From an uncultured Candidatus Saccharibacteria bacterium (GTDB lineage Bacteria > Patescibacteriota > Minisyncoccia > Phycocordibacterales > CSBR16-119), in NCBI GenBank assembly GCA_964426385.1, contig CAYRQF010000002.1, positions 7,037 through 71,036 of the forward strand: 64,000 bases of DNA. Reading direction: 5' to 3'. A program made the translations under genes and the position numbers. The notes beneath the pieces were generated by a model that saw nothing but the letters and a program-made list of their open reading frames with translations, was not told the origin of the DNA and did no database searches. The stretch's first letter is position 1, and each line of letters begins with the position of its first letter. Shown here one piece after another: positions 652 through 35,032 of this stretch.

Positions 652-1371
652 GTGGAGGGCATCCAGAAGTATTTTGTTCAATATGGAGGGTATTTAGACG
701 AGATCAGGCGTCGTGTTTTGATCTTGGTTAAAATATTCGCTAGCGTTTTCGTGTTAGGTTTCATTGCCACGAGTCCACTCATAAAGCTTTTTATGGAGCA
801 TATGGCGATTAAGAATGTTTTAATCGTTTCGACTGCTCCATTTCAGCTAGTAAACCTCGCGATGAGTAGTGGGTTTTTCTTGGCTAGTGTTATAACTACA
901 CCATTTTTTGTTTATCACCTTTACGCATTCTTGAGTCCAGGACTTCTACCAAAAGAGAGAAAGCTGTTCATATCTCTTATACCTTTGTCCCTGGTCCTGT
1001 TCTTTGTTGGATTTTCGTATGGTTTTGCCACTATGTACTATGCAACCCAGTCTATCGCTCAGTTGAACGTCAGTTTGGGGGTGGTTAACTACTGGGATAT
1101 AAGCAAGTTTGTGTCTGAAATAGTTCTTACCTCCTCACTCCTCGGTATAATCTTTGAGTTTCCGATAGTTATCACCTTTTTGATCAAAGTTGGCGTAACA
1201 GGGGTAGAATTCCTACGCTCAAAGCGTCGGCATGCCGTAGTGGCGATATTCATACTTGTTTCTTTACTTCCCCCTACGGATGGTTTATCATTGTTGTTAA
1301 TGGCTTTGCCAATGGTGGTTATTTATGAGCTAACTATTTTGGTTAATTCCAAAATTAAAAAACCTGCATAA
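652..1371 (+). CDS. tatC: Sec-independent protein translocase TatC
   Basis: Multi-TM protein whose N-terminal region (LDEIRRRVLILVKIFASVFVLGFIA) resembles the TatC N-terminus. GTG start. An adjacent tatA supports the call. Confidence 0.8.
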   Translation: MEGIQKYFVQYGGYLDEIRRRVLILVKIFASVFVLGFIATSPLIKLFMEHMAIKNVLIVSTAPFQLVNLAMSSGFFLASVITTPFFVYHLYAFLSPGLLPKERKLFISLIPLSLVLFFVGFSYGFATMYYATQSIAQLNVSLGVVNYWDISKFVSEIVLTSSLLGIIFEFPIVITFLIKVGVTGVEFLRSKRRHAVVAIFILVSLLPPTDGLSLLLMALPMVVIYELTILVNSKIKKPA

Positions 1372-1397: not shown

Positions 1398-1553
1398 ATG
1401 TTTGGATTAGGTACGAAGGAGATAATAATTATTGCGATAATCCTTATACTCCTATTTGGCGCAAAGAAGATTCCAGAATTGGCAAAGAGTCTGGTGGACG
1501 CTGTTAAGCATCTAACTGGATCGTTCAAGGAAGGGGACTCAAAAAAGAAATAA
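1398..1553 (+). CDS. tatA: twin-arginine translocase subunit TatA/E (52 aa, not in the ORF track)
   Basis: Hand translation gives MFGLGTKEIIIIAIILILLFGAKKIPELAKSLVDAVKHLTGSFKEGD.... This matches the TatA TM helix followed by the conserved LLFG-KK-P hinge. Confidence 0.75.
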   Translation: MFGLGTKEIIIIAIILILLFGAKKIPELAKSLVDAVKHLTGSFKEGDSKKK

Positions 1554-1571
1554 CGGAACTACTGTAGAAAT

Positions 1572-1610
1572 AAAACGTTTTTCACACTTTCTTGTGAAAA
1601 ACGTTTTATT
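1572..1610 (+). terminator. rho-independent terminator (15-bp perfect inverted repeat AAAACGTTTTTCACA/TGTGAAAAACGTTTT followed by a T-run)
   Basis: Perfect palindrome seen directly, followed by TTTTATTTAT. Confidence 0.65.
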
Positions 1611-1641
1611 TATAGGGGCAAATTAGATATAATACTACGTA

Positions 1642-4464
1642 ATGAATTGTTTATCGCAAGGGAAAAGAAGCGTTGTTTTTTTGCTGTTTTTTGCTTTTTT
1701 AATAACACCAGTTTTACTGCTTGCTGACGTCGTTATTTATGCTCCAGGAGAGACTGTAAAAATAGGGGAATTTGTATACAACGACGATTTTACTCCGACA
1801 ACTGATGATTGTACGGTAACAATATATAGTCCAGCAGGGGCGACACTTGTGAACGGTGCAACTATGACTGACGATGCCACAGGGTGGCATTACTATGATT
1901 ACACTGCACCAGCAACTAACGGGAAGTATGCTGCATTTATGTCTTGTGGAACACTTATCGCTGGTGACCTGGTCAAAGCCGACAAGACCTTCATTGTTCT
2001 CGATCCAGAAGTAACAGATGCTTCGATAGCAACCAGTGTTTGGGGAAGCGGGTCTAGGACTTTGACAGCCTTTGGGTCTCTTGCTGCAGACGTTTGGAAT
2101 GGAGCGTATGCATCTGTTAGAAGACTCACGGATAGTACTTTAACTAGCGGCGGCGCTCTTGCAACTGAGAGTTACGTAGATGCACTAGAGACAACTGTTG
2201 TTACTGAGGTTCAGGCTAACGGCACACTTATTAGCGCACTTAATGATATCTCAGCTGCTGATGTCTGGGCTCATGGCACCAGATCGATTAACTCCGGAAC
2301 CGTTAGTATAGACAGTGGTTCGGTTGATGCTGTCTGGGATTCTGCCTCGTCAGGCCTCACTGCTGTAGGAAGTATTGGTGAACTTATAGTAGACAATCTC
2401 GATGTTGCCGTATCTACTCGTGGAACGAGCACTCTCACCGCAGGAGATGTTTGGGCTAGTGCAACTCGCACACTTTCTACGACGGGAGTAGATGCAGTAA
2501 CTGCCGGTGTCTGGGCTAACGGCACTAGAACCCTAACAAACTACGGTAACAATATAACGGCAGCTGACGTTTGGAATGTGTTGTCCTCATCTCTCGTGAC
2601 AGCTGGATCTATCGGCGAACAATTGGCTACGAACGTAGACGTCGCCTCATCAGATATCTTGACCGAGATTATGGATACACAGGCTCTGATAAACGCTCTT
2701 AATGATATCTCTGCTGCAGACGTCTGGGCGGCTGGAACACGAACACTTACAGGAAATGTAGATATTTCGACTGCATCTGTGGACGCGATCTGGGATACTG
2801 CTACATCGGGATTGGCTGCGAGTGGTAGCGTAGGAAAACTAATAGTAGATAACCTGGATGCTCAAGTTTCAACTGTTGGAGGCGGAACTTTGACTGCAGC
2901 CGATGTCTGGTCTCATGCAACAAGAACGTTGTCGACGGCAGGTGTAGACAGTATAGCGACTGACGTTTGGGCAGAGGCAACAAGGACTCTTACCGACTAC
3001 GGAAATGATATAACCGCCGCGGAGGTTTGGGATACACTGTCTTCGTCACTTACAACCATCGGCAGTATCGGCGAACAATTGGCTACGAACGTAGACGTCG
3101 CCTCATCAGATATCTTGACCGAGATTATGGATACACAGGCTCTGATAAACGCTCTTAATGATATCTCTGCTGCAGACGTCTGGGCGGCTGGAACACGAAC
3201 ACTTACAGGAAATGTAGATATTTCGACTGCATCTGTGGATGCTATCTGGGATACTGCTACATCGGGACTCACGGCAATCGGCAGTATCGGCGAGCTCATG
3301 GTTGAAAATCTGGACGCCGCAGTATCGACTCGCGGTACTAGTAACTTGACCGCATCTGACGTCTGGGCAGCGGGAACACGAACCCTGACAGACTACTCTA
3401 CCTCTGCAGTTGCGACAGCTGTTTGGGCAAACGGGACGCGCACTCTTTCTAACTACGGCAATGACATAACGGCAGCTGACGTTTGGAATGTGTTGTCCTC
3501 GTCTCTCGTGACGGCTGGATCTATCGGCGAACAATTGGCGACGAACGTAGATGGTCAGATTTCTGCGATAGGTGGGGCTGCCAACTGGAATGTGCGAATG
3601 GGAAATGTGGAGCGAGTCCAGACTGGCTATACGTACAGAACAAAAGTTTTCATACTTGATGCCTCAGCTGAACCAACAGCACCGTTCTCTGTGCCTACGG
3701 TAACTTTGTATGACCCTGATAGGAACATAGTTGTTTCTAATGTGCCTATGAGTTTGGTCACAACCGGTGTGTATGAATATACATATACTGTCGCGAATAA
3801 CGCGGCTCAGGGTCTATGGGAGGCCATAGCTTCTACTGAGGTTGAGAGTGGTAAAACAATACAAACAAACGACTATTTCGAAGTTGCCGGTTCTCCTGCG
3901 CAGGTATTGATTAACTCCGTTAGTTCAGCAAGCATCTCTTCTATTAGTGCCAACGTCACTATTACTAACGAGGGACTTACTGGATATGAATATCAGTACG
4001 AGTGGTGTGTTGTTTCAGATGTGAACAATGAGTGCGGTGGCGGAGATGACGAGTATCACGCTACAGCAGCAAAATTCATTAACCCTAGCGAAGACTGGAA
4101 TACATCATTATCGGCATCTGTTGCAAGTGCGGGAACATACTATTTCAAGTTGGTCGTTTATTTCGGCACAGAGAGTTCTGGCTCATCTAGAATATTCACA
4201 GTAACAGCTCCATCTTCTGGAGGTGGCGGTGGTGGGGGAGGAAGTACTCCTACTGATACCAGTGTTACCCCCATAGCTCCAGCAGGCGCCTGTAGCGGGG
4301 CCGACTTCAACAAAGACAGATTTGTGGATTCTATAGATTTCTCTATTCTCCTGTACTTCTGGAAGGCGTTATCACCATTTAGTAATCCTTGTGTGGATGT
4401 AAATGTCGACCAGAAAGTTGATTCGGTAGATTTCTCAATAATGCTTTATCAGTGGACCAAATAG
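1642..4464 (+). CDS. giant secreted repeat protein (940 aa) with a signal peptide, about 20-25-aa 'DVW..GTRTLT' repeats, a Gly8 linker and a C-terminal dockerin-like double segment
   Basis: N-terminal hydrophobic signal. Internal repeats are visible in both protein and DNA. The C-terminus carries DFNKDRFVDSIDFSILLYFW and DVNVDQKVDSVDFSIMLYQW, two dockerin-type Ca-binding-loop-like segments. Confidence 0.85.
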   Translation: MNCLSQGKRSVVFLLFFAFLITPVLLLADVVIYAPGETVKIGEFVYNDDFTPTTDDCTVTIYSPAGATLVNGATMTDDATGWHYYDYTAPATNGKYAAFMSCGTLIAGDLVKADKTFIVLDPEVTDASIATSVWGSGSRTLTAFGSLAADVWNGAYASVRRLTDSTLTSGGALATESYVDALETTVVTEVQANGTLISALNDISAADVWAHGTRSINSGTVSIDSGSVDAVWDSASSGLTAVGSIGELIVDNLDVAVSTRGTSTLTAGDVWASATRTLSTTGVDAVTAGVWANGTRTLTNYGNNITAADVWNVLSSSLVTAGSIGEQLATNVDVASSDILTEIMDTQALINALNDISAADVWAAGTRTLTGNVDISTASVDAIWDTATSGLAASGSVGKLIVDNLDAQVSTVGGGTLTAADVWSHATRTLSTAGVDSIATDVWAEATRTLTDYGNDITAAEVWDTLSSSLTTIGSIGEQLATNVDVASSDILTEIMDTQALINALNDISAADVWAAGTRTLTGNVDISTASVDAIWDTATSGLTAIGSIGELMVENLDAAVSTRGTSNLTASDVWAAGTRTLTDYSTSAVATAVWANGTRTLSNYGNDITAADVWNVLSSSLVTAGSIGEQLATNVDGQISAIGGAANWNVRMGNVERVQTGYTYRTKVFILDASAEPTAPFSVPTVTLYDPDRNIVVSNVPMSLVTTGVYEYTYTVANNAAQGLWEAIASTEVESGKTIQTNDYFEVAGSPAQVLINSVSSASISSISANVTITNEGLTGYEYQYEWCVVSDVNNECGGGDDEYHATAAKFINPSEDWNTSLSASVASAGTYYFKLVVYFGTESSGSSRIFTVTAPSSGGGGGGGGSTPTDTSVTPIAPAGACSGADFNKDRFVDSIDFSILLYFWKALSPFSNPCVDVNVDQKVDSVDFSIMLYQWTK
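2611..2811. repeat. intragenic near-identical DNA repeat, copy A (about 200 bp)
   Basis: 2611..2783 is identical to 3067..3239 apart from 1-2 mismatches; the following 21 bp are identical again. The offset of 456 bp equals 152 codons, in frame. Confidence 0.85.
3067..3267. repeat. intragenic near-identical DNA repeat, copy B
   Basis: See copy A. In addition, 2563..2640 matches 3478..3555 with 3 mismatches. Confidence 0.85.
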
Positions 4465-4467
4465 CTT

Positions 4468-5376
4468 ATGAAAATATTCAGTAGTAAAAATATCGTGTCG
4501 GTCATTTTCTCTCTAACGCTTGCTAGTGCGTCCGCGTTTTCGCTAACTGCACAAGCTGCAACTATAAGTAACAATCCACTGTCCGATGTGGGCGCTAAAG
4601 ACGTTTTTGTTATAGATATTTTGTTAGACACCGAAGGTGAAAGTATCAACACAGTTGACGGAACTATCAAATTATCGAGCCCGTTGGCTGTTACAGAGGT
4701 GCGCGATATAAGTGTCGCAGGATCGGCGGTTAGCCTCTGGCCAAGGAAGCCTTCTCTTTCTGAAAAGGGTGACGTTATATCTTTTGCCGGAGGTATACCT
4801 GGTGGTGTTGTTGGTAAAGCCATTCCACTTTTTAAAGTCATAGTTTCTGTAAATAGAGAAAGTGAACTAAAAATTCAAGCAAGTGATATCAAGGCTTATG
4901 TTAACGATGGAAAGGGTACAGCCCTTGATGTTGTGGCTAAGTTCTCGCCGGTAAGTATTGGAATTGCAAAAGCGGTACCTGTAGATTCTTGGAAAGAAAA
5001 TATATCGAGTGACAATACTCCTCCAGAACCTTTTGAGATAAAGCTTCTCCAGGATAAAAGTATCTACTCTAATAATTTATATATATCATACGGCACCATC
5101 GATAAAGATTCGGGTGTAAGTCATTACGAAGTAAAGGAAGGGCGACGAGAGCCGGTTCGTGCAGGGGAGACCTATGTACTTATAGATCAGAGTGTCAAAA
5201 CAAACATTACTGTTACAGCGTATGACAAAGCCGGAAATGCTCGTACGGTAGCCTTCTCTCCGGAGAGTAAGAAAATAAACTGGCTATCAATTCTGGTTAC
5301 GGTTCTAGTTGTTGTGGTTGGAGTGAAGATCGTAAGAATTTGGATAAAAAATAGACGTCATGGAAAAGATGTGTAA
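4468..5376 (+). CDS. secreted, C-terminally membrane-anchored protein with a cohesin-like N-domain and an Ig-like domain (AYDKAGN motif)
   Basis: Signal peptide, then a C-terminal TM helix plus basic tail (KIVRIWIKNRRHGKDV). It is a paralog of the next ORF. The N-terminal ~140 aa follow a beta-sandwich pattern reminiscent of cohesin. Confidence 0.7.
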   Translation: MKIFSSKNIVSVIFSLTLASASAFSLTAQAATISNNPLSDVGAKDVFVIDILLDTEGESINTVDGTIKLSSPLAVTEVRDISVAGSAVSLWPRKPSLSEKGDVISFAGGIPGGVVGKAIPLFKVIVSVNRESELKIQASDIKAYVNDGKGTALDVVAKFSPVSIGIAKAVPVDSWKENISSDNTPPEPFEIKLLQDKSIYSNNLYISYGTIDKDSGVSHYEVKEGRREPVRAGETYVLIDQSVKTNITVTAYDKAGNARTVAFSPESKKINWLSILVTVLVVVVGVKIVRIWIKNRRHGKDV

Positions 5377-6616
5377 TCACAAAACCAGAGGCAGATATTT
5401 CATTACTGTATTTGCAGTTATATTTTTCGTAATTTCTTTTTCTAGCGCTTACGCGGCTGAGCTTTTCGTTAATCCTTTTGACGCGACGGTGACAGAAGGG
5501 GATGTGATTAGATTGCGTGTCGGTGTAAATACTCAAGGAGTATCAGTTAACAATGGTGAATCCACCGTATCTTTTCCTGCAGACCTTATGCAAGTCGTAA
5601 GTATCGACACTAGTAGTTCTATCTTCGATTTGTGGGTAAGTAAGCCAACTTTTTCAAACGCAAATGGAACCATAAGCTTTAATGGTGGTGTTGCGAATCC
5701 GGGATTTACAGGTTCTAACGGAACATTATTCTGGATAAATGGAAGGGCAAAGAAGGCGGGCGTTGCAAACATTTCGTTGCAGTCATCATTCGTTCGTGCC
5801 AATGACGGCTTGGGAACTAACGTCTTGTCATCTACTCGAAACACTTCAGTTACTATAGCTAAAGCTGTTGAGAAACCAGCAGAGACAGAGCCTACAGAGG
5901 ATCTAGTTAGAGATGTGATGAGTCCAGATACTTTGTTTATCGCTGTTATGAAAAACGATCAGGGGCAGTTGGTCGCCATGCTTGATGCTCACGATAATGA
6001 AGGCGTAGATCACTTTACTATCACTATTGGCGATAGAGAGCCTGTAAAATTGGTCGCGGTCAATGATGCTACGACATACATTATCCCGAAAGATCTAAAA
6101 GACGGAGTATATATTCTGACAGCCGCAGCTTATGACAAGGCTGGTAATTCCAAGAAGCAGACGGTCAATATAAATATTGATAGCAATATGCCAGAGATAA
6201 CCTACTTCTCTAAAGAGGTGGTGGTTGGCCACGAAGCTCATGTTGCCGGGGCTACAGCAATGCCAAATACAGAAGTCTTGCTCGCCGTAGTGTACCCGAG
6301 TAGGAGGCTAGAAACTTACTTACTCGAGACAGACGAGAGTGGAAAGTTTGATTTCGACACAGAGCCACTACAACAAATCGGAGAGTATACCCTATGGATC
6401 CAGAAGACTGAGGTTGATGGGGTAGAACCTATAACTTCCGAGAGAATAACGATAAATGTAAGCCCAACCTGGGTTCATGCTCAGGTCGAGATGCTAAAGC
6501 CATATGCCCCGATACTCGTAGGGTCAATATTGGGTATCGCTCTTATCGTGCTACTAATGAGGAGTGGTGGCTATAGAGTGATTCGGGTGCCAAGGAGAAA
6601 TAGGGATGATTTCTAG
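5360..6616 (+). CDS. secreted, C-terminally membrane-anchored paralog (418 aa) with a cohesin-like N-domain and Ig-like repeats
   Basis: Signal peptide, a YDKAGN motif, and a C-terminal TM helix plus RVPRRNRDDF tail. It overlaps the previous gene by 17 bp, suggesting an operon. Confidence 0.7.
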   Translation: MEKMCNHKTRGRYFITVFAVIFFVISFSSAYAAELFVNPFDATVTEGDVIRLRVGVNTQGVSVNNGESTVSFPADLMQVVSIDTSSSIFDLWVSKPTFSNANGTISFNGGVANPGFTGSNGTLFWINGRAKKAGVANISLQSSFVRANDGLGTNVLSSTRNTSVTIAKAVEKPAETEPTEDLVRDVMSPDTLFIAVMKNDQGQLVAMLDAHDNEGVDHFTITIGDREPVKLVAVNDATTYIIPKDLKDGVYILTAAAYDKAGNSKKQTVNINIDSNMPEITYFSKEVVVGHEAHVAGATAMPNTEVLLAVVYPSRRLETYLLETDESGKFDFDTEPLQQIGEYTLWIQKTEVDGVEPITSERITINVSPTWVHAQVEMLKPYAPILVGSILGIALIVLLMRSGGYRVIRVPRRNRDDF

Positions 6617-6692: not shown

Positions 6693-6986
6693 ATGCCAGC
6701 AAAAAAAGCAGCAGCAAAGAAAGCGGGAGGAGCAAAGAAAGCAAATTCTGCATTCATGAAGCCTTTAACTATCAGCGCTGATCTAGCCGCTATCGTCGGT
6801 AAGGGCCCTATGCCTCGCTCTGAGATAATCAGCAAGATGTGGGTATACATCAAGAAGAACGATCTACAGGACAAGAAGAATAAGAGAAACATCAACGGCG
6901 ACGCAGCTCTCACTAAAGTTTTCGGGGGCAAGAAGACAGTTACAATGTTTGAGATGGCGAAACACATCAGTAACCACGTCTCATAA
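6693..6986 (+). CDS. SWIB/MDM2-domain protein with an N-terminal Lys/Ala-rich histone-H1-like tail
   Basis: An AKKAAAKKAGGAKKA tail is followed by PLTISADLAAIVGKGPMPRSEIISKMWVYIKKNDLQD..NGDAALTKVFG, which is typical of the SWIB fold. Confidence 0.75.
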   Translation: MPAKKAAAKKAGGAKKANSAFMKPLTISADLAAIVGKGPMPRSEIISKMWVYIKKNDLQDKKNKRNINGDAALTKVFGGKKTVTMFEMAKHISNHVS

Positions 6987-7095
6987 TAGAATTCAACTAG
7001 CAAGAAACCTTCGCACTCGCGAGGGTTTTTTGTTTGTAGGGGTGGTATACTGAAATAAACAGGGCATTAATAGTTAATATAAATAATAAAAAACT

Positions 7096-7401
7096 ATGGT
7101 ATCAAAATACTATGAGTACGCGACGTGGATACTCGGAATCATCGTCATCATCCTAGCGATACTACTCTTCCGTGCACAGAATGCGTCATTGGATGACAAC
7201 CTAGATATGGCTATCGAGAATCTTCGAGAATGTAATGCTGACTTGTCAGCATGGCGCGCAGAGAACCCTTCACCGTCTGCCTCTACAGCGGACCAGCAGA
7301 AGGAGCTATCAGAAATTCTCTCACGGTGTGCAGAAAGTACGGGGGTAGTCGATTCATCTGCGCCCGATATCGGTCCAGAGGCCGGATCTCTCAAACAATA
7401 A
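7096..7401 (+). CDS. hypothetical single-pass membrane protein
   Basis: N-terminal TM helix (WILGIIVIILAILLF). The antisense ORF 7110..7415 translates as low-complexity junk. A hairpin plus T-run follows at about 7417..7455. Confidence 0.4.
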   Translation: MVSKYYEYATWILGIIVIILAILLFRAQNASLDDNLDMAIENLRECNADLSAWRAENPSPSASTADQQKELSEILSRCAESTGVVDSSAPDIGPEAGSLKQ

Positions 7402-7456
7402 TTCGACATATACAAAAATGGCGCGAAGTAGTAATACCTCGCGCTATTTTTGTATT

Positions 7457-8101
7457 CTAGTGAGCGATAGTGAACGCCAGTATCTTCTTGGCGCCCGCGA
7501 TTCGGAGGACGCGTCTCGCTTCTATGAGGGTAGCATGCGTAGTCGTGATATCGTCGATGATAACGACATTCTTGTCTCGAACACTTATGTCAGGCTCGAC
7601 ACTGAACATTCCCCGGAGATTTGTGAGTCGCTTTTGACGATTCCCTATAGAGTGCTGAGTTACCGTGTCGCTTACCTTTCGGAGCACATCTACGACCGGT
7701 AGTTTTCTGTTACTTTTTCTGGATAGTTCATCTGCTATAAGTCGTGATTGATTATATCCGCGCTTGCGTTTACTTTTGGCTGAGAGGGGTATGGGTACTA
7801 GGATGAAGGCCCCAAGGTTATCAAATATTGCGCGCTCTGTGAGCTCGCTCGATAGCTCGTCGTGAAGCCGGAGAGACAAATCCTCAATAACAGAGAATTT
7901 GTTTTCAAACTTGAATTTCCAAAGTAGGCGCTTGATTCGTGGGTCTTTATAATTCCACACAGAAATAATCCAATTGTGATCTGGCGCTTTGGCTAGCGAT
8001 ATTTTCTCGAGGCAGGTTGGGCATATCCAAAATCCTTCCCGTTTACATTCGATGCATCGAGAAGGGAAGAGGAAACTTACAAATTTCTTCAGAATTCTCA
8101 T
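7457..8101 (-). CDS. comFC: ComF family competence protein with a phosphoribosyltransferase domain
   Basis: N-terminal CxxC..CxxC zinc finger and a C-terminal PRTase motif (VVIIDDITTTHATL). Confidence 0.85.
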   Translation of the reverse strand: MRILKKFVSFLFPSRCIECKREGFWICPTCLEKISLAKAPDHNWIISVWNYKDPRIKRLLWKFKFENKFSVIEDLSLRLHDELSSELTERAIFDNLGAFILVPIPLSAKSKRKRGYNQSRLIADELSRKSNRKLPVVDVLRKVSDTVTQHSIGNRQKRLTNLRGMFSVEPDISVRDKNVVIIDDITTTHATLIEARRVLRIAGAKKILAFTIAH

Positions 8102-24074: not shown

Positions 24075-24145
24075 AGCGGGGTGGAGTAGTGGTAACTCAT
24101 CAGGCTCATAACCTGAGGACGGCCGTTCGAGTCGGCCCCCCGCAA
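24075..24145 (+). tRNA. tRNA-Met (anticodon CAT), initiator-like (A11:U24; unpaired 1:72; anticodon stem UCAGG/CCUGA)
   Basis: Cloverleaf folded by hand: D-stem GAGT/ACTC, anticodon loop CTCATAA, T-loop TTCGAGT. Confidence 0.75.
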
Positions 24146-24320
24146 CAATTATAATTTTCAGACTCGGTCATCGCGCTTTTCCTCGGGACTCCTCCTCACC
24201 CGTCAGATTCCTGTCGCGCGACGACATAGGAATCTGCCTCCTTCGGAGCCGGCCGCCCTCGCTTTATCGCTACGCGCGCTCGGGTCAGCTTCGAGTCCCG
24301 CTTGCTTGCCTCCAGCAAGC

Positions 24321-24349
24321 AAAAGAGCATGGAAAATCCATGCTCTTTT
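24321..24349. terminator. bidirectional hairpin (AAAAGAGCATGGA/TCCATGCTCTTTT) lying between convergent tRNA genes
   Basis: Perfect 13-bp inverted repeat flanked by A-runs and T-runs on both sides. Confidence 0.5.
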
Positions 24350-24356
24350 GCTCGTG

Positions 24357-24430
24357 CGCGAGCGGCGGGACTCGAACCCGCAACCTCTCCCGTGACAGGG
24401 GAGTGCTCTAACCAGTTGAGCTACGCCCGC
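24357..24430 (-). tRNA. tRNA-Asp (anticodon GTC)
   Basis: Reverse complement folds as GCGGGCG TA GCTC..GAGC A CTCCC CTGTCAC GGGAG .. GCGGG TTCGAGT CCCGC CGCTCGC G. Confidence 0.85.
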
Positions 24431-24477
24431 ACTAACAATGGCGAAAGTCTAGCATAGAATACCTTGTTCGCCAATGG

Positions 24478-24551
24478 TGTCGGGGGAGAGAATCGAACTC
24501 TCGACCTTAGCGTTATGAGTGCTACGCTCTAACCGTCTGAGCTACCCCGAC
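24478..24551 (-). tRNA. tRNA with a CAT anticodon (elongator Met or Ile2-lysidine type), with an A31.C39 mismatch
   Basis: Reverse complement folds as GTCGGGG TA GCTC AGACGGTTA GAGC G TAGCA CTCATAA CGCTA AGGTC GAGAG TTCGATT CTCTC CCCCGAC A. Confidence 0.75.
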
Positions 24552-24662
24552 ATGAGCCACGTTTGACGTGACAATGACTCAAAATTATCACATAAATGCT
24601 TATTTTCCAATACTCCCGAAACCTTTGAAAAAAAGCCCCAATAGTTTAATATCTTCTGATAC

Positions 24663-24738
24663 GCCGTTGTAGCTCAATCGGCAGAGCACTCCATTGGTAA
24701 TGGGGAGGTAATGAGTTCGAAACTCATCAACGGCTCCA
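24663..24738 (+). tRNA. tRNA-Thr (anticodon GGT), with CCA encoded
   Basis: GCCGTTG TA GCTC AATCGGC AGAGC A CTCCA TTGGTAA TGGGG AGGTA ATGAG TTCGAAA CTCAT CAACGGC T CCA. Confidence 0.9.
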
Positions 24739-24756
24739 GCGTATAATTATGAGGAA

Positions 24757-24822
24757 CCGCCATCCTAGCTCAGTTGGTACCCGCCAGAACGACTGAGATC
24801 GTTCAGTCGGGCGGGGAGCAAG
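24757..24822 (+). other. tRNA-like 5' fragment (acceptor plus D-arm GCCATCC TA GCTC AGTTGGTA) interrupted by a strong nested hairpin (CCCGCC..GAACGA..TCGTTC..GGCGGG)
   Basis: The D-arm consensus is seen, but no closing GAGC, anticodon arm or matching 3' acceptor strand could be folded. Confidence 0.3.
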
Positions 24823-24825
24823 CAA

Positions 24826-24896
24826 GCCGATATAGTTCAGTGGTAGAACATTACTTTCGTAAAGTAAAGACGCGGGTCCGATTCCCGCCTTCGGCT
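24826..24896 (+). tRNA. tRNA-Thr-like (anticodon CGT) with non-canonical features (6:67 U.U and 7:66 A.C; T-loop UCCGAUU)
   Basis: GCCGATA TA GTTC AGTGGTA GAAC A TTACT TTCGTAA AGTAA AGAC GCGGG TCCGATT CCCGC CTTCGGC T. The 3' end abuts the prfB ATG. Confidence 0.5.
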
Positions 24897-34961: not shown

Positions 34962-35032
34962 TGCCGGATCGTCTAATGGTAGGACATATCCCTCTGGAGG
35001 ATAGTATCTTGGTTCGAGTCCAGGTCCGGCAG
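34962..35032 (+). tRNA. tRNA-Gln (anticodon CTG)
   Basis: TGCCGGA TC GTCT AATGGTA GGAC A TATCC CTCTGGA GGATA GTAT CTTGG TTCGAGT CCAGG TCCGGCA G. U1:A72 and G73 are typical of tRNA-Gln. Confidence 0.85.

Follow-up and report, generated by a model that had tools for sequence, protein, structure and literature searches.

A candidate operon-encoded cohesin-dockerin anchoring module conserved in ultra-small Patescibacteria

How Patescibacteria, which are ultra-small and depend on hosts, build their surfaces and attach to their partners is largely unexplained, and experiments have centered on type IV pili in a few cultivated Saccharibacteria. Here, we describe three genes, called A, B, and C, located at positions 1642 to 6616 of a 64,000-nucleotide (nt) stretch of contig CAYRQF010000002.1 (assembly GCA_964426385.1, an uncultured Candidatus Saccharibacteria bacterium); this whole stretch is referred to as the window. 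The product of A is a predicted secreted protein that ends with a dockerin, and B and C encode paralogs that are predicted to be anchored in the membrane and to carry cohesin-type domains (Table 1). An earlier note, made from the letters of the window, had read these genes as a dockerin-tagged giant repeat protein and two cohesin-like paralogs forming a surface-display module beside a type IV pilus locus.

The dockerin protein and its cohesin-type neighbors

A and B are in one frame, with the stop codon and one further codon between them, and the reading frames of B and C overlap by 17 nt. Such abutting and overlapping frames suggest coupled and roughly equimolar synthesis of the three proteins. 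A 22-nt inverted repeat with a 6-nt loop and 95% complementarity (arms at 1565–1586 and 1593–1614) lies between tatA and A and is a probable terminator separating the twin-arginine translocation (Tat) genes from the A-B-C unit. A TATAAT hexamer (1628–1633) is found just 8 nt ahead of the ATG of A, and no Shine-Dalgarno–like sequence is visible there, which together suggest that the mRNA of A is leaderless or nearly so. When the 64 kb were searched with family hidden Markov models (HMMs), exactly one dockerin and two cohesin domains were found, and the dockerin motif occurred only once across the six frames.

The Gly8 run near the C terminus of A lies within a stretch modeled as disordered and is followed, after ~20 residues, by two tandem segments of ~20 amino acids. 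As the earlier note had read it, both segments follow the Ca-binding loop pattern: the loops DFNKDRFVDSID and DVNVDQKVDSVD each have D, N, D, D, and D at positions 1, 3, 5, 9, and 12 of the 12-residue loop. The identification of the tail as a dockerin by profile search depended on how the protein was presented. Full-length A matched the Dockerin_1 model (PF00404) at residues 888 to 934 with 19.1 bits, which is under the cut-off of 22.9, whereas the isolated 72–amino acid tail scored 27.6 bits. All 41 nonredundant homologous tails from related loci matched Dockerin_1 (best E value, 8e-16), with EF-hand models as runners-up. A profile made from homologous tails retrieved solved dockerins, first 2y3n_B (E value of 4e-9) and then 2yik, 4fl4, 1daq, 2mte, 5nrm, 2vn5, and 1ohz. 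In the AlphaFold2 (AF2) model of A, the tail contains helices at 897–905 and 928–936 with a predicted local distance difference test score (pLDDT) of 67 to 88. Most of the 297 homologs of A have precomputed matches to PF00404 and PF01835, and several carry the NCBI name “dockerin type I domain-containing protein.” Taken together, the profile matches indicate that the tail of A is a genuine type I dockerin. Since its halves are 65% identical (family mean, 61%), this dockerin is internally symmetric.

Two cysteines, Cys884 (..ACSGADFN..) and Cys917 (..NPCVDVN..), are each located four residues ahead of a Ca loop. Cysteines at this distance are kept in the clade of the window and in one further dockerin subtype, whereas the most distant subtype lacks them; they may form a disulfide clasp joining the dockerin halves.

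B and C are paralogs (BLASTP, 29% identity, B residues 27–259, E value of 1e-18), and the overlap of their genes and the other sequence features ascribed to them by the earlier note were confirmed. Both proteins start with a signal-like helix, end with a hydrophobic helix and a basic tail, and share the AYDKAGN motif. The AF2 model of B, calculated with a 52-sequence family alignment, had a pLDDT of 91.3 and a predicted template modeling (TM) score of 0.76. It comprises a signal-like helix (residues 3–23), a nine-strand β-sandwich (31–165), a second β domain (192–263), and a transmembrane helix (272–300). When this model was compared to the PDB with Foldseek, the top nine matches were all cohesins. 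The best match was 2w1n, the cohesin-FN3 double module of Clostridium perfringens GH84C (E value of 2.6e-10), and the Ruminococcus flavefaciens ScaB Coh3 and C. perfringens GH33 cohesins aligned with TM scores of 0.74 to 0.78. Sequence identity to known cohesins is just 10 to 18%. In phmmer searches of PDB sequences with B and C, the matches were marginal (for B, R. flavefaciens ScaB cohesin with an E value of 0.18), and 3 of the 52 B-family members reached the Pfam cohesin model PF00963 (best E value, 2.5e-7). The B-family cohesin HMM matched C at residues ~34–175 with an E value of 7.7e-28 and matched nothing else in the window. According to the structure model, the outer domain of B is a cohesin fold, and the HMM match indicates that the cohesin-type domain of C is its homolog.

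The B family has 2685 representatives (50% identity, E value of ≤1e-30) and is uniform, with proteins of ~300 amino acids that are mostly annotated as hypothetical. A minority of the top matches are multi–thousand-residue proteins that align solely through repeated immunoglobulin (Ig)–like domains. Five proteins of 2000 to 4300 amino acids contain 13 to 31 tandem copies of the Ig-like domain of B (profile positions ~179–262), so the domain that forms the putative stalk of B is also a building block of giant proteins.

With its 940 amino acids, A is long, but it is not the giant protein of the earlier note. The part of A that precedes the dockerin, hereafter the passenger, starts with a signal peptide–like segment and a β-sandwich head, in which Cys57 and Cys102 are near-invariant in an alignment of A homologs. 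The repeat region that follows, hereafter the shaft, consists of short “DVW..(G)TRTLT” motifs that lie within a ~152–amino acid higher-order repeat. Tandem Repeats Finder reported a 456–base pair (bp) period in 2.2 copies at 2539–3551, and the 152–amino acid unit was recently duplicated (77% DNA identity). The copy number of the repeat differs widely among A homologs, whose lengths range from ~640 to 1440 amino acids. No Pfam family matched the shaft, and a PHROG search gave one marginal match with no assigned function. Downstream of the shaft, there are two tandem β-sandwich domains. The first matches Pfam MG2 at residues 662 to 746 (46.6 bits; cut-off, 32.8), and the second has the invariant cysteines Cys789 and Cys798. 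The conserved cysteine pairs in the domains of A are consistent with an extracellular protein. Foldseek reported only Ig/MG-like domains for the A model. The matches, with E values of 1e-9, were Vibrio cholerae RbmA and the MG domains of TEP1 and α2-macroglobulin, which resemble A residues 650 to 855. The likeness is at the level of the fold and is limited to two domains; A lacks both a thioester and a bait region and is otherwise unrelated.

Table 1. Genes, predicted domains, and other features of the A-B-C locus and its flanks. Positions are those of the window.
Feature	Position (nt)	Strand	Basis or remark
tatC	652–1371		Directly upstream of the A-B-C genes
tatA (single)	1398–1553		Directly upstream of A
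Inverted repeat, 22 nt	1565–1614	+	Between tatA and A
Gene A, 940 amino acids; predicted secreted, dockerin-tagged surface protein (cargo)	1642–4464	+	Open reading frame (ORF)
A 1–29, signal peptide–like; K/R n-region, hydrophobic core, no twin arginine	1642–1728	+	Sequence; AF2 helix 2–29
A 31–120, N-terminal β-sandwich head	1732–2001	+	AF2 pLDDT ~87–93
A ~121–646, repeat region	2002–3579	+	Motifs nested in higher-order repeat
A 650–855, tandem β-sandwich domains, MG2-like and second	3589–4206	+	Pfam; AF2 pLDDT 81–93
A 860–867, Gly8 flexible linker	4219–4242	+	Sequence; inside disordered stretch 859–882 (AF2 pLDDT <50)
A 884–940, type I dockerin, two Ca-loop-plus-helix segments	4291–4461	+	PF00404; profile matches to solved dockerins; AF2
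Dockerin segment 1, D888–W907, DFNKDRFVDSIDFSILLYFW	4303–4362	+	
Dockerin segment 2, D919–W938, DVNVDQKVDSVDFSIMLYQW	4396–4455	+	
Gene B, 302 amino acids; predicted membrane-anchored cohesin protein	4468–5376	+	ORF; AF2
B 30–166, cohesin-fold nine-strand β-sandwich	4555–4965	+	
B 186–264, Ig-like stalk domain with AYDKAGN	5023–5259	+	AF2 strands 192–263; subthreshold NCBIfam OmpL47-type match
B 272–295, C-terminal transmembrane helix, then basic tail	5281–5352	+	AF2 helix; sequence
Gene C, 418 amino acids; predicted membrane-anchored cohesin protein, B paralog	5360–6616	+	ORF; BLASTP versus B
C 33–170, cohesin-type domain	5456–5869	+	Predicted from homology to B
C 215–375, Big_13 Ig-like domain (215–274) and further domain	6002–6484	+	Pfam Big_13, 40.3 bits (cut-off, 27)
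C 384–400, C-terminal hydrophobic anchor, then basic tail RSGGYRVIRVPRRNRDDF	6509–6559	+	Sequence
SWIB-domain protein	6693–6986		Between C and pilM
Pribosyltran-domain gene	7457–8101	−	Between C and pilM; small ORF before it

Linkage and covariation in related loci

Related loci were collected by a pattern scan, based on a 14-sequence alignment, with one genome taken per species. The 80 loci obtained and a complete Candidatus Nomurabacteria genome (CP064958.1) made up a sample of 81 loci, in which ORFs were called and compared with segments of the A, B, C, TatC, and TatA sequences. Relatives of B were present in at least 131 species-level genomes. Upstream genes were counted in the 77 loci with more than 400 bp of sequence upstream of the B homolog; in 76 of them, an ORF ending with a dockerin lies immediately upstream on the same strand, mostly at a distance of −13 to +30 nt. 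Three loci depart from this layout: two have one cohesin gene in between, and in one the dockerin gene is 4 kb upstream. Downstream of the B homolog, one to four C-type cohesin genes are found in 72 of the 81 loci. The adjacency of dockerin and cohesin genes that the earlier note had pointed to in the window thus extends to its relatives, and the A-B-C trio is conserved across many ultra-small Patescibacteria. Named relatives among the carriers are Nomurabacteria, Paceibacterota, Parcubacteria, and Minisyncoccales. The titles of nine loci refer to Gammaproteobacteria, Promethearchaeota, Planctomycetia, Nitrospira, Methylomirabilis, and Humimicrobiaceae; the module is probably not truly present in those groups, and misbinned contigs or loosely named metagenome-assembled genomes would account for the titles.

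While the position of the dockerin gene is conserved, the passenger is not. Nearly all matches from a search with the dockerin-tail profile were short fragments at contig ends, and cargo diversity was read from the syntenic loci instead. Among the loci, the length of the upstream dockerin protein varies from ~250 to more than 2600 amino acids. Of 76 loci, 19 retain A-type repeats and 26 retain the MG2 region; other passengers contain Big_6, Big_13, or fn3 arrays, Cys-rich DUF4215 repeats, or a weak Y_Y_Y match. A and six diverse syntenic dockerin proteins were searched, and none of them showed a catalytic or carbohydrate-binding domain. The dockerin is the only invariant part of the gene preceding the cohesin genes, and its constancy despite passenger turnover is the strongest argument for a functional dockerin-cohesin pair.

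The conservation of the B-family cohesin domain is consistent with such a pair. In solved complexes, the 8-3-6-5 sheet of the cohesin is the one that binds the dockerin. In the B family, conservation peaks at strand 5 (LWPRKPSL, 0.76), strand 6 (0.72), the loop after strand 8 (NDGKGT, 0.86), and strand 3 (0.60), and the equivalent motifs in C are LWVSKPTF, ISFNGG, and NDGLGT. These strands and the loop would belong to, or border, the dockerin-binding sheet, which hints at the location of an interface.

Position 10 of the dockerin loop, which is known to affect the specificity of type I dockerins, is Ser in 25 loci, Thr in 1, and Leu, Ile, or Phe in 51; the window belongs to the Ser class. In the cohesins, the columns that follow the split most closely are 93 (R to E), 92 (P to I/V), 88, 134, 114, 144, and 107 in B and 146 (R to L), 108 (N to E), 65 (N to A), and 94 in C. 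Three of them are homologous in both paralogs (B93/C94, B107/C108, and B144/C146), and the covarying residues B 92, 93, 107, and 144 and C 65, 94, 108, and 146 are located on strands 3, 5, 6, and 8. From the alignments, the covariation of Ser versus Leu/Ile with the cohesin columns would fit coadaptation of the dockerin and the cohesins.

Proposed anchoring module and competing explanations

We propose, with a probability of roughly 0.7, that A, B, and C are an anchoring module complete in itself, which is encoded by one operon and works by non-cellulosomal cohesin-dockerin binding. B and C would be type I membrane proteins, a topology implied by their predicted signal-like and C-terminal hydrophobic segments, with the cohesin outermost on an Ig-like stalk, a transmembrane helix, and a basic cytoplasmic tail. 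A would be exported through its Sec-type signal peptide, and its dockerin, carried on the flexible Gly-rich linker, would dock to the cohesin domain of B, of C, or of both, with Ca2+ as a putative requirement for the contact. Docking would tether the long nonenzymatic A protein (head, repeat shaft, and tandem Ig/MG2-like domains) to the cell surface as a lineage-variable fiber. B and C may serve as alternative partners, in a dual-binding-mode manner, or as a joint clamp on the symmetric dockerin. The most likely biological role would be adhesion to a host, as the earlier note had suggested, or to a substrate, or the building of a surface coat.

Cohesins and dockerins are the defining modules of cellulosomes, and non-cellulosomal cohesin-dockerin pairs are said to have been surveyed across genomes by Peer et al. 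2009 (FEMS Microbiol Lett 291:1; cited in PMC10066038). The glycoside hydrolase toxin complexes of C. perfringens (2w1n, 2vo8, 2o4e, and 2ozn) and the Archaeoglobus fulgidus cohesin (2xdh) resemble A-B-C in having cohesins and dockerins outside cellulose degradation, and the cohesin-FN3 double module of C. perfringens mirrors the cohesin plus Ig-like arrangement of B. Unlike in these pairs, the cohesins of A-B-C are single, predicted to be anchored by a C-terminal transmembrane helix, and present as two conserved paralogs. Their single presumed dockerin partner is encoded in the same operon, the cargo is nonenzymatic and variable, and the lineage is Patescibacteria. In its proposed workings, A-B-C would be like the anchoring end of a cellulosome. 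Compared with the anchoring scaffoldins OlpA, OlpC, and SdbA of C. thermocellum, ScaE of R. flavefaciens, and ScaB and ScaC of A. cellulolyticus (3ul4, 4dh2, 2zf9, 5nrk, and 4uyp), B and C would use a transmembrane helix instead of S-layer homology domains or sortase (no LPXTG motif is present in the sequence ahead of their hydrophobic tails), and enzymes, a carbohydrate-binding module (CBM), and a multi-cohesin scaffoldin are absent. Four features set A-B-C apart from the known cases: the putative anchoring by a transmembrane helix, the conserved pair of cohesin paralogs, an operon that joins them to one dockerin protein, and the lineage. The view of the earlier note that the system is undescribed in this lineage is in line with a full-text literature search for dockerins and cohesins in Patescibacteria and candidate phyla radiation lineages, which returned no description of the A-B-C module. 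The nearest mention was SEML1_0315 of Southlakia epibionticum, considered below.

If the three genes form an anchoring module as proposed, they offer a compact and directly testable mechanism, in that the predicted small, soluble, Ca-dependent domains can be produced in Escherichia coli. Such a module could also be of interest to protein engineers as a minimal cohesin-dockerin set that is paired in nature and comes in two apparent specificity classes.

Several results weigh against the anchoring module. Neither B nor C matched PF00963 at an E value of ≤1, NCBIfam gave no cohesin match either, and a search of PDB sequences with the 52-sequence B-family profile found none. Because of these failures, cohesin membership rests on the fold and a few homologs; the cohesin likeness proposed in the earlier note therefore stands as far as the modeled fold of B, the homology of C, and the three family members matching PF00963 are concerned but not as a PF00963 match of B and C themselves. 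Within B, the Ig-like domain is no less conserved than the cohesin domain (22 positions above 0.8), and an important function may thus sit in the Ig-like domain. The shaft of A was modeled by AF2 as low-confidence helices (pLDDT 30 to 65); speculatively, it may fold only as an oligomer. Last, phylogeny confounds the covariation at position 10: the loci with Ser probably belong to one clade, in which case the covariation may amount to one evolutionary event.

Among the alternatives, the one that survives best, although we consider it unlikely, is that A, B, and C are envelope proteins coexpressed without docking to one another. In that case, B and C would be independent adhesins of the Ig/cohesin fold, and the dockerin of A would act as a Ca-dependent stabilizing or ligand-binding module toward something else, for instance the cell wall, a glycan, or the host surface. 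This would agree with B and C being under the Pfam cohesin threshold and with the case of SEML1_0315, an essential cell-envelope protein of S. epibionticum that is described as dockerin-domain-containing by Wang et al. 2023 (Cell; PMC10633639), who also speculate that such proteins target host-cell glycans. By its description, SEML1_0315 is like A in being a ~930–amino acid, dockerin-bearing envelope protein of a Patescibacterium that is rich in Ig/FN3-like domains and has a proposed role in adhesion. Unlike A, it has no cohesin-like genes alongside, its neighbors being an α/β hydrolase gene and a transfer RNA (tRNA). This phylum can therefore have dockerins with no cohesin next to them, and equivalence of A to SEML1_0315 was not supported. 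The absence of mutual docking is, however, difficult to reconcile with dockerin and cohesin genes staying adjacent in all but one of the 77 loci despite complete passenger turnover, with the dockerin being the sole invariant part of the upstream gene, and with conservation and covariation falling on strands of the canonical binding sheet. In addition, cohesin folds are known above all as receptors of dockerins.

A more far-reaching version of the anchoring module, which we regard as rather doubtful, is that A-B-C constitutes the principal surface-attachment organelle of many Patescibacteria (Paceibacteria/Parcubacteria-type). B and C would clamp the pseudosymmetric dockerin simultaneously, yielding a heterotrimeric anchor for a fast-evolving, possibly oligomeric fiber with a host-recognizing head. 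If so, the Ser and Leu dockerin classes with their matched cohesin changes would represent lineage-specific “lock and key” pairs.

It is far less probable that A-B-C is an accessory of neighboring machinery, either as the adhesin set of a type IV pilus or as Tat-exported cargo with its receptors. The gene for PilM starts 1.5 kb downstream of C, and the genes for TatC and TatA lie directly upstream of A. In the closest clade, 13 loci have TatC-TatA-TatA genes ahead of the module, with two tandem tatA genes compared to the one in the window, and two further loci have Tat genes 4 to 5 kb away on the opposite strand. However, TatC was found in only 15 of the 81 loci and is absent from 66, and the hairpin described above splits tatA from A. 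A twin-arginine motif (S/T-R-R-x-F-L-K) is also missing: A has GKRSVVF, B has no Arg pair, C has TRGRYF, and the N termini of A homologs lack RR as well. When the window and the 81 other loci were compared, PilM was seen in the window alone and PilB in the window and one other locus. Both links were therefore rejected. The type IV pilus locus beside which the earlier note had placed the genes is not a conserved neighbor, and the two neighborhoods are incidental.

A minimal cellulosome or another polysaccharide-degrading complex, in which the cohesins would organize dockerin-bearing enzymes on the cell surface, is the least probable of all and was rejected as an identity for A-B-C: cohesins and dockerins define cellulosomes and are used in metagenomic surveys as markers for the degradation of polysaccharides (PMC7038595), but no enzyme or CBM match was found in A or in the six syntenic dockerin proteins, B and C have one cohesin each, and a single dockerin is present in the window. 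Cohesin and dockerin matches in Patescibacteria genomes should accordingly not be taken as markers of this kind.

Other features of the neighborhood

A 138–amino acid ORF (51–467) located upstream of tatC is extremely rich in Glu, Pro, and Val (PVEPTPEPEEVPPVAEEPVPEVVPEEEIVPP...) and has a low-complexity mirror ORF on the opposite strand. On the other side of the module, the order of the SWIB gene, the small ORF, and the Pribosyltran gene (6693–8101), the last of which is presumably ComF-like, is common to near-identical contigs only. The ORFs after PilM are assumed to encode PilN, PilO, and PilB. An Rfam search of the window returned no ribosomal RNA or other matches besides tRNAs. Five tRNA genes are clustered on both strands within 0.8 kb (24075–24896), and a sixth is located at 34962–35032.

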